From a virus (lineage: Duplodnaviria > Heunggongvirae > Uroviricota > Caudoviricetes): a stretch of DNA of 15,008 nt. This document shows, one piece after another, positions 1,840 to 15,008 of this stretch. Every line of letters starts with the position of its first letter. Position 1 is the stretch's first letter. The DNA lies in the IMG/VR virus record IMGVR_UViG_2703718837_000004. One strand, given 5' to 3'. The position numbers and the translations under genes are program-made. Below the pieces are notes generated by a model. The model saw only the letters and a program-made list of their open reading frames with translations. It did no database searches and had not been told where the DNA came from.

Positions 1840-2367
1840 ATGCAGCATTTAAAGAACATTAAGTCAGGTAATCCAAAAACAAAAGAGCAATATCAGCTAA
1901 CAAAGAATTTTGATGTTATCTGGTTATGGTCCGAAGACGGAAAAAACTGGTATGAGGAAGTAAGTAATTTTCAGCCAGACACAATAAAGATTGTTTACGA
2001 TGAAAATAATATTATTGTCGCCATCACCAGAGATGCTTCAACGCTTAATCCTGAAGGTTTTAGCGTCGTTGAGGTTCCTGATATTACTGCCAACCGGCGT
2101 GCTGATGACTCAGGTAAATGGATGTTTAAGGATGGTGCCGTGATTAAGCGGATTTATACGGCAGACGAACAGCAGAAACTAGCGGAATTACATAAGGCAG
2201 CTTTGCTTTCCGAAGCTGAATCCGTAATTTTGCCGCTGGAGCGCGCTGTCAGGCTGAATATGGCAACAGGTGAGGAGCGCAGTCGACTGGATGCATGGGA
2301 ACGCTACAGCGTTCTGGTCAGTCGTGTGGACCCTTCAAATCCTGAATGGCCGGACATGCCGCAATAA
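1840..2367 (+). CDS. G: Tail fiber assembly chaperone (P2 gpG-like, 175 aa)
   Basis: ATG 4 nt after the H stop with an AGGTG RBS. Length and sequence ([10 protein letters not shown]…EWPDMPQ) match P2 G as recalled; position immediately downstream of H is conserved. Confidence 0.9.
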
Positions 2368-2751
2368 GTTGTATGATCTCTGGAGTGAGCTAACGTATCT
2401 ATGGTACAGAGTAAAGCCTAATCTGACAGTCCGCTCCGAGTCAACAGCGGGAGTTGGAGTGCCAGATACTATCTAAAAGTTGATGGTTTCTTTTGTAGGG
2501 ATACCTACAGGCGCATTTGCACTTGAACAGTCAGAAGAACTCGACGAGACCGGCGTCGGCCAGAAAATGGCGAAGCCCGCATTTTCTACGACCGTTTGCA
2601 GGAACACTCTTGGATGTTACGTATAATAGTATGGTAGACCAGAATGACCGACAGCTTAGTGCTCAGACGGTGTAAAAAGGGAACGTTGCTAACGTTAATT
2701 TGTGTGATTAGTTGAAGGAATACTTATGCTGGTAACTATTTTTACTATTAA

Positions 2752-2769
2752 GGCCCTTGCTTTAGGGCC
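2752..2769 (-). terminator. Weak candidate terminator downstream of the RT gene
   Basis: Hairpin GGCCC-N8-GGGCC lying about 20 nt past the RT stop; on the minus strand it is followed by a moderately U-rich tract (UUAAUAGUAAAAAUAG). Confidence 0.3.
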
Positions 2770-2789
2770 AAAACATTAACTTTCTAAGG

Positions 2790-3887
2790 CTAGGGTTTTA
2801 GCAGTGCATTAGAAATTTCATCAATAATCACTGAGTATTTGGTGATTTCGTTTTCGTGAAAACATCTGAATTTATCATTAAATTTTACTAATGATATTAA
2901 ATATGAACGATAACCAGCTAACTTATTAGAGAATTGTGAATTATAAAAATCCGTTACAAACTGATCTGCATTGTTATTATACTTGACAGTTGGTGATTTA
3001 ACAGAAAATACTTTTTTGCAAATATGCTCTTTAGAATATCCCTTTTTAAATTTATCTAGTGCTTTCCGTATTAAATACATTTTTCCATTAGATATTCTTA
3101 TACTCCCTCTCTCTCCCCCTCCATTTTTATTTTCTATTACATAGCCGTTTAGTGAGATTATGCCTTTCTTAAATATTTTTTTATGTTTGTTGAGGGACAG
3201 TCCTGCCGTATTGACAATAGTTGATATCTCGTTGTCAAAATGTTCACTTCCAAGAAGTTTGTCTTTCCCGGAGCTCGAAAAAAGCATATCATCAGCATAA
3301 CGAGTGTAAATGATGCTTCTTTTGTCACACAAACTTTTAATTAAAATATCTAACTTTCTGAAAATTATATTGGATATGAAAGGTGATGTGGCGAATCCCA
3401 TTGGAAATATTTTTTTCTTTTTATTGTTGACTACAATCTCAATAGATAAACTATTTAAAAATGCATCAATAACTTTGATTTTTTTATTTACCAGATATTC
3501 ATCTTCAAAGTAGGATTTGAAACACTCCCTTGCAAAGTTATAGTTTATGTTATGAAAAAAATTACATAAGTCAATTCGACAAAAGTTCTCACCATGGATA
3601 TGAGGTTCTAGAAAATTCAAATAGTTTAATTTTTTACGATAGGCAATTGCAGGTGAGCTAAGAGGAACTTTTACTAGGAAATTTTTTATAAGTCTTTCTT
3701 GTATTTTTTTATGCGGGGAGCTTTTTCTTATAGTGAAACATAATCTATTCTTTAATGAAATGCTTTTATAATCGTCATTGGAAATCTCAGGGACTCCGTG
3801 AGTCATAATAATATCATCGGAGAATGTTTCTCTTAGATAAAAATTTTTATAAAAATCATTGTTAATTTTATTAATTTTATGTTTCAT
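2790..3887 (-). CDS. Reverse transcriptase (defence-associated type; retron-like or Abi-P2-like), 365 aa
   Basis: RT motifs readable in the translation: motif A …CRIDLCNFFHNI, motif B …FPMGFATSPFISNIIF, motif C …YTRYADDMLF (YADD). AGGAAG RBS 7-8 nt upstream of the ATG. Same strand as, and 120 nt downstream of, the OLD-like gene. Confidence 0.8.
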   Translation of the reverse strand: MKHKINKINNDFYKNFYLRETFSDDIIMTHGVPEISNDDYKSISLKNRLCFTIRKSSPHKKIQERLIKNFLVKVPLSSPAIAYRKKLNYLNFLEPHIHGENFCRIDLCNFFHNINYNFARECFKSYFEDEYLVNKKIKVIDAFLNSLSIEIVVNNKKKKIFPMGFATSPFISNIIFRKLDILIKSLCDKRSIIYTRYADDMLFSSSGKDKLLGSEHFDNEISTIVNTAGLSLNKHKKIFKKGIISLNGYVIENKNGGGERGSIRISNGKMYLIRKALDKFKKGYSKEHICKKVFSVKSPTVKYNNNADQFVTDFYNSQFSNKLAGYRSYLISLVKFNDKFRCFHENEITKYSVIIDEISNALLKP

Positions 3888-3893
3888 GTAAAA

Positions 3894-4043
3894 GCTTCCT
3901 CTTCGATACCAATAACATCTTTACACCCCGTGAGGCTTAAAGCGGCTTAGCGGACGCAAGACAATCCGAGCTAGTGTTTGCTGGAGCAAGTGACGGCATG
4001 CGTCAGCTCATTTGAGCCCTCCAGCTTCTATCGAAGAAGAAGC
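3894..4043 (-). ncRNA. Candidate structured ncRNA (retron msr-msd-like) bracketed by a 15-nt inverted repeat
   Basis: Arms at 3894-3908 (gcttcctcttcgata) and 4029-4043 (tatcgaagaagaagc). In the minus-strand transcript they pair over 15 positions (14 Watson-Crick plus one G.U); on the plus strand that position would be a C.A mismatch. Nested stems: gctggag 3980-3986 with ctccagc 4019-4025, and tgacg 3991-3995 with cgtca 4001-4005. Local G+C is clearly higher than in the flanking AT-rich genes. The distal arm sits immediately 5' of the RT start and contains its RBS; the proximal arm overlaps the last codons of the ATPase gene. Confidence 0.3.
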
Positions 4044-6272
4044 ATGATCGATGATATGCGAAATTTCAGGAAAAGCCAAGCGGAATTTTTTTTCGACATT
4101 TTCTTTATCTAGGGCTGAATAATGATTAAGGCTAAAATCAATGAAGCTTGTAACCCATCCAGAAGTCTTTCCTATGTAAGAACTCATAAAAGAGAAATTT
4201 TCTGACTTTAATGCTTTGATATAATCCAATATATCTTGCCGTATCGGTTTTTGATCAATTTTATAATGCATTTCTATACTTACAAGAGTTTCTGTTTTGC
4301 CACTAAAAATAAGGCGCAAGATAGCAACTTGGTCTTTTACGTCGGGGATGGTTTTTTTAAACTCATCAATTATTTCTTTAGCATATCTAATTTTAATGAT
4401 TTTCAATAATCTCATGTGTCGCAATGGTAGGTTATGATTTGTTTCACATTTTGAAAGTATTTTGGGAAAAAGTTGTTTTGATTGGGTTTTAATATCGTAT
4501 TTTTGCAGCAGAGCATTAATCATTTTTACAGGGTTTTTATTATTTACATTAAAGCTTCTCATTACTATGTCAATGATCCATAAAGAGAATGTCTCTAAAG
4601 AGAATTCATTGATCAATGAGCCTTCTATCGTTGTAGAAGTATAATAAACATTATCTTTAGAGGATAAAAAATTAACTGCGCTTATAACTCTGCCTATACT
4701 GAAGTGTCTGAATTTTAGGCCATTTTCACTGAATGTTACTTTCCTTTCATCTTGGCTTAAAAGAAATTTTGCTGCGTTAAGAAAAGGTTTTTGGTATGTC
4801 GAAAAATAGTGTAGTTTATCTCTCTTAATGATTTTATTAATAATTGATTTCCCTTTCGAATTAAATTTAAATTGTTCATGTTCGAAGTCAACAACGGCAA
4901 TCTGATCAATATCCTTTACTACTAGAAATGGGATGGCTGCATTTGAGTAGCTGGGGTTTATATTTTTCAACATTACTTCATCGCAATCATACACATCTAA
5001 CCTTTTAAGTACTGGAAACAGCTTTTGCAGATTATAATTTCTAAACAATTCAACTTCTGTGGCGCCCTCTACAAATAGAATGTATTCACTAAAGAATAGA
5101 CGGGCCTCATTATCGCTAAGCATATTTATAAATCTAATGTCATTATATTTAGAGTTTAATTTTGAAATTTTGGTCGAGTTGTCACGTTCTTTTGAAAAAT
5201 GCAAAACCTGCTGTTTATGTAAGAAAGATTTTAGCGTGAGTTTTAGTAAACTCGGAGAATGAGTGCTAAATATAAGAGTTGGATATGGTGTTGAATATTT
5301 TCCAGGCTCAATTTCCTCATGGGTTTTATCATACTTTTTATATGTCAGGCTTATGTTCTCAATAAAGTTCTCGCTAAGTTTTGGATGTAGCCCAATTTCA
5401 GGTTCATCAATATATATAATTGGATTGATAAATTCTGTTCTTGTTAATGAAATTAATAGGCTAAGTATAATTTCAAGATATTTGTGAGAGTTCGTGCCAT
5501 CCGACTGAACATGTAGTTCTTCACCTTTATTTATGAAAATATCGCCATCTAAAACTATTTTTAGATAATTAACGACTTTATCTTTATAGGTGTAAGGTTT
5601 AGTATGGATTACATTTTCAACTCTTTCTATATACTTCTTGTAACTACCCCGCTTAGTTGATATTTTCTCATTCAAAAACTCAAGGAGTTCTTCTTTTTTT
5701 ATTTCAGAGAAATTAAAGGAATTTATACTGCTGAGCATTTTCCATATGCTATTCCAGTCGTATAAGTCAATGTGTCTGGTTTCAATATGGAAAAAAGGAA
5801 ATAGAGTTTTAATTAGATGCCGGGCATTTGGTGTGCTAATTGACCAAGTTACGGAGTCATCTTTAGAAATTGTGAGTGTAATGCTATAAGTGCTTTTTCT
5901 TTGGAAACCCAAAGGAGATATGAAAGGAAGACAGAATTTCTGCGGCTTTCGGATGAATGATTGTGGCTTAAATAAAGTGTTATAAATATGCTTGTGAAAG
6001 CGACCATTGTTATTAGGGTTCATTACAATTCTCTTTATTCTTGTTACATCATAAGTCAATGTTATTGACCCTGAAGGAGTATAACTAGAATGAAAATCAG
6101 GAGGTATTACTTTTATGTCGTCAAGTTTGTCGTAAAAATATTTCAATATTTTCATAAGATTGGATTTGCCAACATTATTCATCCCTACAATGCAATTTAC
6201 ATCCTCTAGGGAATTTATTATTACATCATTAAATGATAGTAAGTTTTTTATTCTTATGCTTTGCAAACCCAT
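4008..6272 (-). CDS. OLD-family ABC-type ATPase / Toprim nuclease-like protein, 754 aa
   Basis: Walker A GMNNVGKS (aa 30-37), Walker B/D-loop IIYIDEPEIGLHP (aa ~285-297), H-loop FSTHSP (aa ~335-340). Toprim signature follows: ILFVEGATE (aa ~398-406) and FLVVKDIDQ (DxD, aa ~449-457). About 200 aa of C-terminal extension. RBS AAGGAA upstream of the ATG. Confidence 0.8.
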   Translation of the reverse strand: MGLQSIRIKNLLSFNDVIINSLEDVNCIVGMNNVGKSNLMKILKYFYDKLDDIKVIPPDFHSSYTPSGSITLTYDVTRIKRIVMNPNNNGRFHKHIYNTLFKPQSFIRKPQKFCLPFISPLGFQRKSTYSITLTISKDDSVTWSISTPNARHLIKTLFPFFHIETRHIDLYDWNSIWKMLSSINSFNFSEIKKEELLEFLNEKISTKRGSYKKYIERVENVIHTKPYTYKDKVVNYLKIVLDGDIFINKGEELHVQSDGTNSHKYLEIILSLLISLTRTEFINPIIYIDEPEIGLHPKLSENFIENISLTYKKYDKTHEEIEPGKYSTPYPTLIFSTHSPSLLKLTLKSFLHKQQVLHFSKERDNSTKISKLNSKYNDIRFINMLSDNEARLFFSEYILFVEGATEVELFRNYNLQKLFPVLKRLDVYDCDEVMLKNINPSYSNAAIPFLVVKDIDQIAVVDFEHEQFKFNSKGKSIINKIIKRDKLHYFSTYQKPFLNAAKFLLSQDERKVTFSENGLKFRHFSIGRVISAVNFLSSKDNVYYTSTTIEGSLINEFSLETFSLWIIDIVMRSFNVNNKNPVKMINALLQKYDIKTQSKQLFPKILSKCETNHNLPLRHMRLLKIIKIRYAKEIIDEFKKTIPDVKDQVAILRLIFSGKTETLVSIEMHYKIDQKPIRQDILDYIKALKSENFSFMSSYIGKTSGWVTSFIDFSLNHYSALDKENVEKKFRLAFPEISHIIDHASSSIEAGGLK

Positions 6273-6376
6273 GGGAGCGATTCCTTATAAAAATAAAACC
6301 TTGTATTCCTATAATTCGAGTGATGTCTCAACGGACTATTCGGAACAACTTTGGTTTATATAGCTCAAGTTTTTAT

Positions 6377-6400
6377 TCATTATTATGCATGTAATAATGA
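6377..6400. promoter_or_regulatory. Palindrome in the presumptive cargo promoter region (tcattatta-tgcatg-taataatga)
   Basis: Perfect 9-bp inverted repeat with a 6-bp spacer, 105-128 bp upstream of the ATPase start in AT-rich DNA. Operator-like; no cognate regulator gene is visible. Confidence 0.25.
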
Positions 6401-6648
6401 ATTACAAGTTTTCATTTTGCTTGGAATCAATTTTTTCACTCAGGTAAAGTAATTTTTGCGAGTGACTGTATGATACGGTCTCAATAGTATTAGAGCTTGA
6501 ATTCAGAATTGCAGTGATGCTCATTGTGCGGCTACTTTCACTGTATGCCATCCATGTCTGTTTCTCGCTCAAAGCAGGCTGTCAGATTTGATAGCGTTTT
6601 GGCTACGTATTTTGTCAGTTGGAAATTGAGAGAGTGCAAATCAAGGCT

Positions 6649-6675
6649 GGCGGGCTGATTGCCCGCCTTTTCTTT
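6649..6675 (+). terminator. Rho-independent terminator between the cargo island and the FI promoter region
   Basis: Stem GGCGGGC (6649-6655), loop tgatt, GCCCGCC (6661-6667), then TTTTCTTT. Would stop read-through from the H-G transcript before the F operon. Confidence 0.6.
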
Positions 6676-6771
6676 ATCTGTTGTTTCATCCACTGGCCAG
6701 CCAGGTCAAATAGCGTCTCATGCTCTGCACAACAGAAAATAGTTGCACCCATTAACCACGGAGTTAAACGG
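6676..6771 (+). promoter_or_regulatory. Presumptive late promoter region for the F operon (P_F-like)
   Basis: Placed by position only: between the terminator and the FI RBS (GGAG at 6761-6764). TGT triplets at 6679-6684 lie at roughly -55 if transcription starts about 30-40 nt upstream of FI, but an exact TGT-N12-ACA Ogr box is not present. Confidence 0.3.
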
Positions 6772-7962
6772 ATGAGTGACTATCATCATGGCGTGCAGGT
6801 GCTGGAGATTAACGACGGCACCCGCGTCATTTCCACCGTATCCACTGCCATTGTCGGCATGGTCTGCACGGCCAGCGATGCGGATGCGGAAACCTTCCCC
6901 CTCAATAAACCGGTGTTGATTACCAATGTGCAGAGCGCAATTGCAAAGGCCGGTAAAAAAGGCTCGCTGGCGGCATCGTTGCAGGCCATCGCCGACCAGT
7001 CAAAACCGGTCACCGTTGTCGTGCGTGTGGAAGACGGCACCGGCGACGACGAGGAAACGAAACTTGCGCAGACCGTTTCCAATATCATCGGCACCACCGA
7101 CGAAAACGGTCAGTACACCGGACTGAAAGCCCTGCTGGCGGCGGAGTCGGTAACCGGTGTTAAACCGCGTATTCTCGGTGTGCCGGGACTGGATACCAAA
7201 GAGGTGGCTGTTGCACTAGCATCCGTCTGTCAGAAGCTGCGCGCTTTCGGATATATCAGCGCATGGGGCTGTAAGACCATTTCCGAGGTGAAAGCCTACC
7301 GCCAGAATTTCAGCCAGCGTGAGCTGATGGTCATCTGGCCGGATTTCCTCGCATGGGATACGGTCACCAGTACCACCGCCACCGCGTATGCCACCGCCCG
7401 TGCGCTGGGTCTGCGCGCTAAAATCGACCAGGAGCAGGGCTGGCATAAAACGCTGTCCAACGTCGGGGTAAACGGTGTTACCGGCATCAGCGCATCTGTA
7501 TTCTGGGATTTGCAGGAGTCCGGCACCGATGCTGACCTGTTGAACGAGTCTGGCGTCACAACGCTGATTCGCCGCGACGGTTTCCGCTTCTGGGGTAACC
7601 GTACCTGCTCTGATGACCCGCTGTTCCTCTTTGAAAACTACACCCGCACCGCGCAGGTGCTGGCCGACACGATGGCTGAGGCGCACATGTGGGCGGTGGA
7701 CAAGCCCATCACCGCAACGCTGATTCGCGACATCGTTGACGGCATCAATGCCAAATTCCGTGAGCTGAAAACAAACGGCTATATCGTGGATGCGACCTGC
7801 TGGTTCAGCGAAGAATCCAACGATGCGGAAACCCTCAAGGCCGGAAAACTGTATATCGACTACGACTATACCCCGGTGCCTCCTCTCGAAAACCTGACCC
7901 TGCGCCAGCGTATTACCGATAAATACCTGGCAAATCTGGTCACCTCGGTTAACAGCAATTAA
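6772..7962 (+). CDS. FI: Contractile tail sheath protein (P2 gpFI-like, 396 aa)
   Basis: Start set at ATG 6772 (MSDYHHGVQVLEIN…) with a GGAG RBS 7 nt upstream. The ORF-track start at 6619 would run through the upstream terminator. Sequence matches P2 FI as recalled. Confidence 0.9.
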   Translation: MSDYHHGVQVLEINDGTRVISTVSTAIVGMVCTASDADAETFPLNKPVLITNVQSAIAKAGKKGSLAASLQAIADQSKPVTVVVRVEDGTGDDEETKLAQTVSNIIGTTDENGQYTGLKALLAAESVTGVKPRILGVPGLDTKEVAVALASVCQKLRAFGYISAWGCKTISEVKAYRQNFSQRELMVIWPDFLAWDTVTSTTATAYATARALGLRAKIDQEQGWHKTLSNVGVNGVTGISASVFWDLQESGTDADLLNESGVTTLIRRDGFRFWGNRTCSDDPLFLFENYTRTAQVLADTMAEAHMWAVDKPITATLIRDIVDGINAKFRELKTNGYIVDATCWFSEESNDAETLKAGKLYIDYDYTPVPPLENLTLRQRITDKYLANLVTSVNSN

Positions 7963-8549: not shown

Positions 8550-8825
8550 ATGAACAAAGAAAATGTGATTACCCTGGACAATCCGGTCAAACGTGGTGAG
8601 CAGGTTATCGAACAGGTCACGCTGATGAAACCCAGTGCCGGGACGCTGCGCGGTGTCAGTCTGGCTGCGGTCGCGAACTCCGAAGTCGATGCACTGATTA
8701 AGGTGCTGCCGCGCATGACTGCACCGATGCTGACCGAGCAGGAAGTCGCCGCACTGGAACTGCCTGACCTTGTGGCGCTGGCCGGTAAGGTGGTCGGTTT
8801 TTTGTCGCCGAACTCGGTGCAGTGA
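8550..8825 (+). CDS. E: Tail assembly chaperone E (P2 gpE-like, 91 aa)
   Basis: MNKENVITLDNPVKRGEQVIEQ…; GAGAAAACC upstream of the ATG. Contains the slippery heptamer near its 3' end. Confidence 0.85.
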   Translation: MNKENVITLDNPVKRGEQVIEQVTLMKPSAGTLRGVSLAAVANSEVDALIKVLPRMTAPMLTEQEVAALELPDLVALAGKVVGFLSPNSVQ

Positions 8826-8977
8826 CGTTCCCGAAAAATCTGTCGGTCGATGACCTGATGGCGGATGTGGCAGTGATATTTCACTGGCCGCCATCAGAAC
8901 TGTATCCCATGAGCCTGACCGAACTCATCACATGGCGCGAAAAGGCGCTCCGGCGAAGTGGAAGCACGAATGAGTAA
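8550..8977 (+). CDS. E': E+E' fusion chaperone produced by programmed -1 frameshift
   Basis: Slippery site T TTT TTG at 8798-8804 in E frame. The -1 frame continues from 8804 as VAELGAVTFPKNLSVDDLMADVAVIFHWPPSELYPMSLTELITWREKALRRSGSTNE to TAA at 8975-8977, overlapping the T start. Same arrangement as P2 E/E' and lambda G/GT. Confidence 0.7.
8798..8804 (+). other. -1 ribosomal frameshift slippery heptamer (T TTT TTG)
   Basis: X XXY YYZ motif in the E reading frame, followed by an open -1 frame of 57 codons. Confidence 0.7.
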
Positions 8978-13074: not shown

Positions 13075-13155
13075 TGTTTTTATTTTATCTGTTTGTTTTA
13101 TAAGGATAAATTAACTAAAATGGCACCATCAATAAAACCGGAAGAGGTGCTCGCG

Positions 13156-13374
13156 ATGTTTCATTGTCCTTTATGCCAGCATGCCGCACATGCGCGTACA
13201 AGCCGCTATATCACTGACACGACAAAAGAGCGTTATCACCAGTGTCAGAACGTGAATTGCAGCGCCACGTTCATCACTTATGAGTCGGTACAGCGATACA
13301 TCGTGAAGCCGGGAGAAGTCCACGCCGTAAGGCCACACCCGTTGCCGTCAGGGCAGCAAATTATGTGGATGTAA
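13156..13374 (+). CDS. ogr: Late gene transcriptional activator Ogr (zinc-finger, 72 aa)
   Basis: MFHCPLCQHAAHARTSRYITDTTKERYHQCQNVNCSATF… with a CxxC…CxxxxC zinc-binding motif; matches P2 Ogr as recalled. The ORF-track start at 13093 is an upstream in-frame extension; AT-rich putative promoter at 13075-13125. Confidence 0.85.
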   Translation: MFHCPLCQHAAHARTSRYITDTTKERYHQCQNVNCSATFITYESVQRYIVKPGEVHAVRPHPLPSGQQIMWM

Positions 13375-13646: not shown

Positions 13647-15008
13647 TCACTTACCGTGGGGATTACGCGTGGTTTCCCCGGAGAAATTACGCATCAGCAG
13701 CGCGTAATTGAGCTCAAGATCCTGCGGGACCGGGAGCCACACAGTATAACCATCGCCTGGTGCTATCGGCATAGCTTCGCCTTTGGCGTTTTCCATGTGC
13801 TCAAGGGTAAAATTAATGTTGCCTTGCGGCGTCATCAGCTCAAGGCTGTCGCCAACGGAGAATTTATTTTTCACCGCTACCGCCGCGAGGTCCCCCTTGC
13901 GCTCACCGGTAAACTCACCAACAAACTGCTGGCGGTCAGAAACTGAATAACCGTATTCGTAGTTCTGATAATCGTCGTGAGTATGACGACGCAGGAAACC
14001 TTCGGTATAGCCACGATGCGCCAGACCTTCCAGAGTTTCCAGCAGGCTGGTATCGAACGGTTTTCCCGCAACGGCGTCATCGATAGCTTTGCGGTAAACC
14101 TGTGCGGTGCGTGCACAATAGTAGAAAGATTTGGTACGACCTTCGATTTTCAGCGAATGCACGCCCATTTTGGTCAGGCGTTCTACATGGGCGATGGCGC
14201 GCAGATCTTTCGAGTTCATGATGTAAGTGCCGTGCTCATCTTCAAACGCGGTCATATACTCGCCCGGACGCTGGGCCTCTTCGATCATAAACACTTTGTC
14301 GGTTGGTGCGCCGATACCCAGCGTCGGCTCAACATTTTGCACCGGAATCGGCTCGTACTTGTGTACGATGTTGCCAACATCATCTTCTTTCCCTTCCTGG
14401 ACGTTGTACTCCCAGCGGCAGGCGTTGGTGCAGGTGCCCTGGTTCGGGTCGCGCTTGTTGATATAGCCAGAGAGCAGGCAGCGACCGGAGTAGGCCATGC
14501 ACAGCGCGCCGTGAACGAAGATCTCGATCTCCATATCCGGCACCTGATTGCGGATCTCTTCAATCTCTTCCAGCGACAGCTCGCGAGAGAGGATCACGCG
14601 GGTCAGGCCCATTTGCTGCCAGAATTTCACCGTCGCCCAGTTCACGGCGTTAGCCTGCACCGAAAGGTGGATCGGCATTTCAGGGAAGTGCTCACGCACC
14701 AGCATAATCAGCCCTGGATCGGACATAATCAGCGCATCCGGCCCCATTTCCACCACCGGTTTCAGGTCACGGATAAAGGTTTTCAGCTTGGCGTTGTGCG
14801 GTGCAATGTTGACCACGACATAAAACTTTTTCCCCAGCGCGTGGGCTTCATTGATGCCGAGCTGAAGATTTTCGTGGTTGAATTCGTTGTTGCGCACACG
14901 CAGGGAATAACGCGGCTGGCCCGCATAAACAGCATCTGCGCCATAAGCGAAAGCGTAACGCATATTTTTCAGCGTTCCCGCCGGGGAAAGGAGTTCCGGT
15001 TTAAACAT
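13647..15008 (-). CDS. yegQ: U32-family peptidase-like protein YegQ (453 aa), complete
   Basis: Full ORF from ATG (15006-15008 on the minus strand) to stop. MFKPELLSPAGTLKNMRYAFAYGADAVYAGQPRYSLR… matches E. coli YegQ as recalled. Cys-rich region CMAYSGRCLLSGYINKRDPNQGTCTNACRW. Confidence 0.85.
   Translation of the reverse strand: MFKPELLSPAGTLKNMRYAFAYGADAVYAGQPRYSLRVRNNEFNHENLQLGINEAHALGKKFYVVVNIAPHNAKLKTFIRDLKPVVEMGPDALIMSDPGLIMLVREHFPEMPIHLSVQANAVNWATVKFWQQMGLTRVILSRELSLEEIEEIRNQVPDMEIEIFVHGALCMAYSGRCLLSGYINKRDPNQGTCTNACRWEYNVQEGKEDDVGNIVHKYEPIPVQNVEPTLGIGAPTDKVFMIEEAQRPGEYMTAFEDEHGTYIMNSKDLRAIAHVERLTKMGVHSLKIEGRTKSFYYCARTAQVYRKAIDDAVAGKPFDTSLLETLEGLAHRGYTEGFLRRHTHDDYQNYEYGYSVSDRQQFVGEFTGERKGDLAAVAVKNKFSVGDSLELMTPQGNINFTLEHMENAKGEAMPIAPGDGYTVWLPVPQDLELNYALLMRNFSGETTRNPHGK

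Follow-up and report, generated by a model that had tools for sequence, protein, structure and literature searches.

The DNA analyzed here is a stretch of 15,008 nucleotides (the window) from the tailed-phage record IMGVR_UViG_2703718837_000004 in IMG/VR, and this study concerns the retron that lies in it between the tail genes G and FI. The window, a 100% match to the chromosome of E. coli UPEC85, represents the tail part of a P2-like prophage, with the gene order tail-fibre gene, G, cargo, FI, FII, T, U, D, followed by a host peptidase gene. The left flank of the cargo is formed by the tail fibre assembly gene G (1840-2367, plus strand; Pfam Caudo_TAP, 2.2e-33; ‘tail fiber assembly protein’ in RefSeq) and the right flank by the tail sheath gene FI (6772-7962, plus strand; Pfam Phage_sheath_1, 9.4e-34). 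A first-pass annotation of the window had placed the G stop at 2367 and the FI start at 6772, separated by a gap of 4.4 kb with an insert on the opposite strand. Gene calls and Pfam agree with these limits, and the interval's two large open reading frames (ORFs), at 4008-6272 (754 aa) and at 2790-3887 (365 aa), both run on the minus strand. We are highly confident that G and FI here enclose the Z/fun cargo slot of a P2-like prophage, occupied by one complete type I-B retron of the Eco8 family together with a gene-less remnant of another cargo unit. The slot is laid out, from left to right, as a left boundary element, two remnant segments (a and b), a decayed boundary element, the retron and a right boundary element.

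The smaller ORF (2790-3887, minus strand) encodes a retron reverse transcriptase (RT) of the type I-B/Eco8 family (PADLOC RT_I-B, 2.7e-106). Residues 6-363 match the RT chain of Retron-Eco8 in the PDB (6.5e-88), and the motifs YADD (197-200), PMG (162-164) and LNG (at 246) are intact. The larger ORF (4008-6272, minus strand) encodes an effector nuclease with OLD-family ATPase and TOPRIM domains (PADLOC ATPase-Toprim_I-B, 1.6e-210), of which residues 1-750 match the OLD nuclease of Retron-Eco8 in the PDB (3e-227). Here, too, the motifs are intact, including Walker A (GMNNVGKS at 30), Walker B (IIYIDE at 285) and the TOPRIM residues VEG (401) and DID (454). RefSeq names this protein ‘retron Eco8 family effector endonuclease’, and no RNA is annotated there. 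The two proteins group with a branch from Serratia, Proteus, Morganella, Providencia and Pectobacterium, and their identity to the proteins of the common E. coli Eco8-family locus (L011) is 43% for the RT and 52% for the effector.

Between the two genes, we identified a predicted msr-msd non-coding RNA (ncRNA) at 3894-4043 on the minus strand, which was detected via inverted repeats and comparison within the family. A 15-nt inverted repeat closes a 150-nt structure with intact stems and a folding energy of -58.7 kcal/mol (z -3.2), in which IRa2 (4043-4029) is followed by the predicted branching G at 4028, and an opposing G at 3909 borders IRa1 (3908-3894). Through its first 34 nt, the ncRNA overlaps the 3' end of the effector gene (its final 11 codons plus stop codon), while IRa1 ends 7 nt ahead of the ATG of the RT gene. 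The same arrangement, in the form CGATA-G...G-TATCG, was found upstream of the RT gene in 15 of the 33 other family loci examined, including those of Serratia, Pectobacterium, Marinomonas, Vibrio, Pseudoalteromonas, Proteus and others, as well as the common E. coli Eco8-family locus. In the latter, the bordering G is position 18 of the ncRNA, in agreement with the branching G18 published for Eco8 (PMC13402713). Compensatory double changes were observed in 14 of the 24 consensus pairs in an alignment of 12 ncRNA sequences. The ncRNA is an island of 51% G+C within a cassette of about 30% G+C, and it is approximately 80% identical at the nucleotide level to the Marinomonas loci, though the RT proteins are only 38% identical.

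The order effector-ncRNA-RT is identical to that of the common E. coli locus and to that published for Eco8 (PMC13402713). RT, ncRNA, effector and gene order all agree with those of a type I-B retron, so that every defining feature of this type that can be examined in a sequence is present. By these features, the cargo is a complete but diverged type I-B retron of the Eco8 family.

The transcription signals of the cassette are predictions. A sigma-70 promoter within the 3' end of the effector gene (TTGGCT-17-TATCAT, 4051-4079, minus strand) was suggested by a consensus scan, and its start would fall at the 5' end of the ncRNA (4043). A TATAAT-like box recurs at a constant spacing in 15 family loci; as it also lies over conserved coding sequence, we hold this promoter as a prediction only. 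The consensus scan also suggested a candidate promoter for the effector gene (TTGTAA-17-AATAAT, 6379-6407, minus strand); the segment 6273-6553 is common to three contigs with 91% identity to the cassette (L097-L099). About 20 nt past the RT stop codon lies a hairpin with a G-C-rich stem of 6 bp (GGCCCT-N6-AGGGCC, 2752-2769, minus strand; -12 to -14 kcal/mol). It is kept with variable loops in Serratia, Pectobacterium and two contigs (L097, L101), has no counterpart in the common E. coli Eco8-family locus, and is probably a weak terminator or a stabiliser of the 3' end of the retron operon.

The first-pass annotation had described this hairpin and a stronger plus-strand hairpin on the right as convergent terminators that insulate the insert. 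The left hairpin is indeed present and belongs to the cassette, being kept in four relatives, although its U-tract is poor. The right one (GGCGGGC-N5-GCCCGCC followed by TTTTCTTT, 6649-6675, plus strand) is a strong intrinsic terminator with 7 G-C pairs (-16.7 kcal/mol), but it is a backbone element whatever the cargo: it was recovered in all 12 P2-like sequences, with a stem that varies between phages, and as a cargo boundary it was therefore ruled out. It is unidirectional and directly upstream of the activator site of the late promoter pF, whose region, comprising the activator-binding site and the transcription start, was placed at 6676-6750 (plus strand) by alignment with the annotated P2 genome (activator site 17555-17583, start site 17626). 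This terminator is a backbone insulator that would halt plus-strand transcription from G or any cargo before pF. Since the retron operon is transcribed away from it, it neither terminates that operon nor is convergent with it, and the notion of paired convergent terminators is not supported: the right one faces transcription towards pF, and only the left hairpin belongs to the cassette. With its own plus-strand terminator and pF on the right, the backbone would allow the cargo to be swapped without disturbing late expression of the tail genes.

Some observations weigh against the identification of the cargo as a complete Eco8-family retron. An Rfam scan of positions 2000-7200 at E<=1 gave no match to the ncRNA. 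The identities of only 43% (RT) and 52% (effector) imply that the trigger and the target range may differ from those of Eco8. Promoter-like sites were no commoner here than in shuffled sequence in the consensus scan, and the hairpin at 2752-2769 has the tail TTAATAGTAAAAAT, a poor U-tract, and was not called by the terminator scan. Lastly, a plus-strand scan from G to 6578 recovered a single weak terminator-like site (4934-4953, 3 G-C pairs). With only a weak plus-strand terminator in the cargo, late transcripts from the H-G operon may cross the retron in antisense direction. Such antisense transcription may continue to the backbone terminators at 6578-6595 and 6649-6675.

The lack of a retron RNA in the Rfam scan would also suit another kind of RT-associated defence system, either of the defence-associated reverse transcriptase (DRT) or of the abortive infection (Abi)-like type, that forms no multicopy single-stranded DNA (msDNA). 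We regard this as highly improbable in view of the best PADLOC models, which are those of the type I-B RT and effector, of the nearest solved structures, which are Retron-Eco8 chains, and of an ncRNA with IRa1/IRa2, bordering Gs and covariation exactly between the two genes. Another alternative is that the cassette is an inactive or silenced passenger, whether unexpressed, silenced by H-NS or disrupted by antisense late transcription. AT-rich DNA is described as typically bound by H-NS in a preprint (bioRxiv 10.64898/2026.09.05.749240), the retron promoters are predicted only, and the slot also holds a decayed unit. Nevertheless, both ORFs have full length when set against the solved Eco8 proteins, no catalytic motif is damaged, the stems of the ncRNA are intact, and the two complete genomes that carry the cassette differ by only 0.3% across it, which makes a dead passenger unlikely.

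If the cargo is an Eco8-type retron, as we conclude, its operon would be transcribed leftwards through the effector gene, the msr-msd ncRNA and the RT gene. The RT would prime from the 2'-OH of the branching G (window position 4028) and copy the msd into msDNA, after which RT, msDNA and OLD nuclease would assemble into an autoinhibited tetramer. Binding of the msDNA by the SSB (single-stranded-DNA-binding protein) of an infecting phage would free the nuclease, which would degrade DNA and abort the infection. For Eco8 itself, msDNA, an autoinhibited RT-msDNA-OLD complex, a phage SSB trigger and abortive infection have been described (PMC13402713), and by analogy we infer msDNA synthesis, the SSB trigger and abortive infection for the present retron; we likewise infer the use of its promoters and the function of its terminator. 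As lysogenic-conversion cargo, the retron would shield the lysogen population from other phages, and hence the prophage too.

Alignment of the G-FI interval from 12 P2-like sequences placed the limits of the conserved backbone at approximately 2455 and 6554. Backbone homology with the 11 other sequences stops at about 2436-2488 on the left (about 2455) and restarts at about 6553-6565 on the right, with the exception of EC45, where it restarts only at 6651. The comparison of G+C content and codon usage confirmed that the cargo is AT-rich against the tail genes, with a G+C content of 28.7% in the RT gene, 31.5% in the effector gene and 34% in the segment 6273-6553, as compared to 44% in G and 56.7% in FI, and a G+C content at third codon positions of 0.26-0.29 in the cargo genes versus 0.69 in FI. 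The contrast in composition claimed by the first-pass annotation is thus real, but the changes are not located at 2368 and 6771, as had been suggested: backbone extends to about 2455 and resumes from about 6554, and the drop in G+C on the left side starts only at about 2650. Similarly, the slot is large, with a distance between its repeats of 4.1 kb versus at most 3.0 kb in the sampled P2-like viral contigs (26 values among the matches listed), but the idea of a single small gene in its place is inexact, since fun(Z) of P2 is 1.6 kb long inside a G-FI interval of 2.4 kb, according to the P2 annotation.

The content of the slot varies extensively. The G-FI flanks were matched in 2,115 of 5,426 complete E. 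coli genomes, of which only 2 contain this cargo, and the prophage together with this cargo also recurs in 4 viral contigs. In the 11 other sequences compared, the slot genes encode fun(Z), PIN and SIR2 proteins, a restriction endonuclease, an SMEK protein, PD-T7-1 and hypothetical proteins, on either strand. Outside P2-like prophages, positions 2734-6311 are 81-83% identical to a Serratia marcescens locus between a permease gene and nrdDG and to a Pectobacterium locus beside hsdM, and positions 2670-6570 are 91% identical to island-like metagenomic contigs that also bear genes for DUF4942, CbtA and CbeA. The presence of the same cassette in non-phage sites of Serratia and Pectobacterium and in an island-like metagenomic contig implies exchange, and by this distribution, the retron is exchanged cargo in the Z/fun position. 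The Z/fun locus is one of the two classical hotspots of P2 (bioRxiv 10.1101/2024.10.15.618418). The other, the cos-proximal old/tin region, was analyzed by Rousset et al. (2022), whose study we rejected as a reference for Z/fun because it covers old/tin.

We give almost no credence to the alternative that the RT and OLD genes represent ancestral content of the P2 lineage. The six sequences that share both prophage and cargo do so at 98.6-100% identity, but thousands of P2-like prophages with homologous flanks bear other genes, the G+C content is 29-32% in the cargo versus 56% in the tail genes, and the cassette is also present in Serratia, Pectobacterium and island contexts. Relatives with the same genes at host-like composition had been named in the first-pass annotation as the pattern that would contradict an exchange; what we observed was an AT-rich cargo confined to 2 of the 5,426 genomes.

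The stretch of about 380 bp at 2368-2750, which the first-pass annotation took to lack a convincing ORF and to be a possible relic of the displaced gene, is a composite. There is indeed no ORF longer than 52 aa wholly inside it; a 68-aa ORF at 2270-2476 overlaps the end of G. The first 88 bp (2368-2455) are conserved backbone. The adjoining positions 2456-2651 are 84-85% identical to two segments of an integrative island in E. coli NCTC9064 (L012, 2710-2790 and 4001-4149), in which the homologs of segments a (2456-2509) and b (2510-2651) are 1.2 kb apart. In NCTC9064, a gene of 288 aa lies between the two segments and a Gabija-like gene pair occupies the place of the retron, whereas in the window the gene is missing and a and b are joined at a microhomology of 2 nt. 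Segment a was also found in Klebsiella plasmids, in phage-plasmids and in phage YpM46. Fun(Z) and 12 other slot proteins gave only tiny matches to 2368-2750 in a tblastn search (E>=0.018), and an origin from fun(Z) or another slot gene was rejected, there being no trace of these 13 proteins at the protein level. The suggestion of a relic thus holds in a different sense: as judged by these alignments, 2456-2651 is a relic of a neighboring cargo unit, and not of Z/fun.

The remnant is followed by a decayed copy of the boundary element (2652-2688, plus strand), which is of the GTGCCA type with an insertion of 11 nt and was recognized by alignment with copies in NCTC9064 (L012) and L097 only, as the profile search described below did not detect it. 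It marks the RT-side end of the retron unit, with homology to NCTC9064 ending at 2662 and homology to L097 starting at 2670. A small palindrome (tgtagg-gata-cctaca, 2494-2509) that had been singled out in this stretch turned out to be at chance level, with 2 observed members of its class versus 0.59 expected (P=0.14). It is imperfect in the homologous copies and adjoins the deletion junction at 2509/2510, and as a recombination site it was rejected on account of its chance-level frequency and its imperfection in homologs. The 288-aa gene of NCTC9064 (L012, 2868-3734) has no PADLOC match and a cassette position between two defence systems; it may be an uncharacterised defence gene.

The ends of the slot are formed by a hairpin element of about 27-36 nt. 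In the P2-like intervals, it is present as an inverted pair of the form AATCTGACAG-TCYGCT-N8-10-AGCGGAM-RTT, with the cargo directly after and with the loop GTGCCA in the left copy and GAGCGA in the right copy. Using a profile of 20 copies from elsewhere than the window, together with the alignment of the 12 P2-like sequences, we identified the left element at 2420-2455 (plus strand, E=2.7e-6) and the right element at 6554-6588 (minus strand, E=5.5e-10). The left loop is degenerate in the window (GAGTCA instead of the GTGCCA of other P2-like phages), and the right loop is of the GAGCGA type. In GenBank entries AJ5126xx, the left element is the inner end of the ‘left inverted repeat’, which maps to 2340-2450, and the right element is the start of the ‘right inverted repeat’, which maps to 6556-6643. 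Homology to L097 ends at 6570, inside the right element, so that the stretch homologous to the island-borne retron begins (2670) and ends (6570) within copies of the element.

The element is not confined to P2-like phages. At a score of 13.5 bits or more, the profile gave 14 matches in 112 kb of real sequence as compared to 1 in 30 dinucleotide shuffles, and the matches outside P2 were inward-facing pairs around single cargo units. Such pairs enclose a NucC-like DUF6602 gene on a plasmid (L013), a Gabija-like gene pair and a pair of DUF4297 and AAA ATPase genes in the NCTC9064 island (L102), an SMC-like gene in L097 and, with weak copies (E=0.3-2.9), the retron itself in the Serratia chromosome (L017). 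A scan with the exact pattern recovered at least 120 viral contigs (L107-L226), 89 of which are listed as having no P2-type G and FI in the fetched stretch. Among the matches listed for this set, the two copies lie 0.3-6 kb from each other in all 77 adjacent (+,-) pairs, and they abut within 60 nt in 12 of the 18 (-,+) pairs. The enclosed DNA has a mean G+C content of 38.9% versus 48.2% in the flanks, being lower in 71 of the 77 pairs, and defence or candidate-defence families of PADLOC were identified in 8 of the 10 units sampled. Among the hosts of these units are lambdoid phages, integrase-bearing islands and phages whose tail fibres are of the P2 type, often with the units in arrays.

Units with 99.2-99.7% identity were found in otherwise unrelated backbones, in either orientation. 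In 3 of the 4 unit pairs examined, homology ends at the outer edge of the 27-nt cores on both sides; in the fourth, it ends there on one side and 18-26 nt further on the other. It is rather unlikely, in our view, that the turnover of the slot is ordinary homologous recombination in G and FI and that the hairpin elements play no part in exchange, being mere insulators or terminators. With about 90-95% identity from phage to phage, G and FI would provide long substrates for recombination, and the hairpins could serve as the 3' ends of RNAs. However, the homology breakpoints are located at or inside the elements rather than in G or FI, nearly identical units end at the core edges in unrelated backbones, and the chromosomal copy in Serratia is itself bracketed by the weak copies of the element.

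We tentatively suggest, as a possibility that falls short of an even chance, that the elements are the ends of a widespread cassette system without a recombinase of its own, in which AT-rich accessory or defence genes are bounded by a GTGCCA-type end and a GAGCGA-type end, and whose units are exchanged in either orientation among P2-like phages, lambdoid phages, phage-plasmids and CP4-like integrative islands. The units would be exchanged either by a trans-acting enzyme that recognizes the hairpins or by replacement through short homology, as in recombineering, and the retron would then be one unit beside an emptied one. Junctions of two cores were detected in 1,029 of the 5,426 E. coli genomes (about 19%), at 1-3 unannotated places in each. 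In E. coli ATCC 25922 (L227, 9001-9069), the junction is part of a genomic island, with a hypothetical gene on one side and, on the other, an operon for a TonB-dependent receptor and ABC iron uptake; its position next to an iron-uptake operon implies that the element units carry more than defence genes.

Other parts of the window were also inspected. The tail-fibre region and G (1-2100) have a patchy and in places low G+C content (0.38-0.44) as compared to 0.55-0.60 from FI to D, which fits the swapping of tail-fibre and assembly gene modules reported in P2-like phages (bioRxiv 10.1101/2024.10.15.618418). Two short plus-strand ORFs that overlap each other (8550-8977), located between FII and the tape-measure gene, resemble the E/E' pair of P2. 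That pair is expressed with a programmed frameshift in P2. A short ORF downstream of D (13093-13374) is a candidate ogr-like gene, and a complete host gene for a U32 peptidase follows on the minus strand (13647-15008), so that the end of the prophage must fall between the two. In E. coli K-12, a cryptic P2 remnant (ogrK) lies beside yegQ, and we presume that the attachment site of this prophage is the same.

Much of what is described here is ordinary for specialists: the Eco8-type defence family and the Z/fun hotspot are already known, the effector is half-annotated by RefSeq, and the P2 part of the boundary element was annotated in 2004 (GenBank AJ5126xx). The variable Z-region of P2-like coliphages was reportedly described by Nilsson et al. 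in the same year. Our literature searches, in which that work was not covered, brought up no account of the element outside P2. As a fully delimited and diverged member of the Eco8 type, with an unannotated ncRNA and a predicted branching G, the retron is useful for retron engineering, and at 43-52% identity it allows the conservation of the SSB trigger to be probed. The map of the slot separates backbone (boundary elements, terminator and pF) from cargo at the level of single bases. The shared boundary element, which is the part of possibly wider interest, provides a testable handle on how defence cassettes move between the hotspots of unrelated mobile elements.

Among known systems, the boundary element is comparable to integron attC sites, to doublets of repetitive extragenic palindromic (REP) sequences such as REPINs and bacterial interspersed mosaic elements (BIMEs), and to the terminal repeats of miniature inverted-repeat transposable elements (MITEs), all of which are likewise short imperfect palindromes between successive cassettes. 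As in these, neighboring units abut as inverted doublets 12-20 nt apart and contain AT-rich accessory genes. Unlike attC, the element has no conserved GTTRRRY box, its inner ends consisting of GTT or ATT and then variable bases that lack an RRRY pattern (the search did not extend to IntI in the flanks). High chromosomal copy numbers are typical of REP sequences, whereas the two-core junction occurs 1-3 times per genome; there is no GTAG motif as in REP/BIME sequences, and no copies were located in the core-gene flanks examined. The element also differs from these analogs in that the sampled units contained no gene for an integrase or transposase, and in that a unit has different loop sequences at its two ends. 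We know of no convincing likeness to enterobacterial repetitive intergenic consensus sequences or intergenic repeat units (ERIC/IRU), Tn3-type inverted repeats, hix/gix or dif sites.

The effector shares the succession of an ABC-type ATPase domain and a TOPRIM nuclease domain with P2 Old, Gabija GajA and PARIS AriA, which gave weaker PADLOC matches. In contrast to all three, the nuclease would here be tied to an RT and an msDNA sensor, and in contrast to P2 Old, it sits in the Z/fun hotspot and not in the cos-proximal old/tin region. The OLD nuclease is a classical defence cargo of P2 phages (Rousset et al., 2022).

The closest relative among characterized systems is Retron-Eco8 (type I-B, E. 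coli 200499; structures such as 23or, 9lbq and 9p4j), which has the same three parts in the same order. Both proteins are full-length matches, with YADD, PMG, Walker A, Walker B and DxD all present, and the ncRNA of about 150 nt has the IRa2-G...G-IRa1 architecture. The common E. coli Eco8-family locus differs from that in the window in having no hairpin after the RT gene and in its IS-flanked chromosomal site, as compared to the slot in a P2-like prophage. The slot itself corresponds to the Z/fun locus of P2, where fun(Z) confers T5 exclusion, and to the Z-regions of P2-like phages in GenBank AJ5126xx. It has the same G-FI position, the same left and right inverted repeats and the same type of AT-rich, non-essential cargo in either orientation, but it contains a three-part retron instead of a single gene and holds two units, one of which is gene-less.

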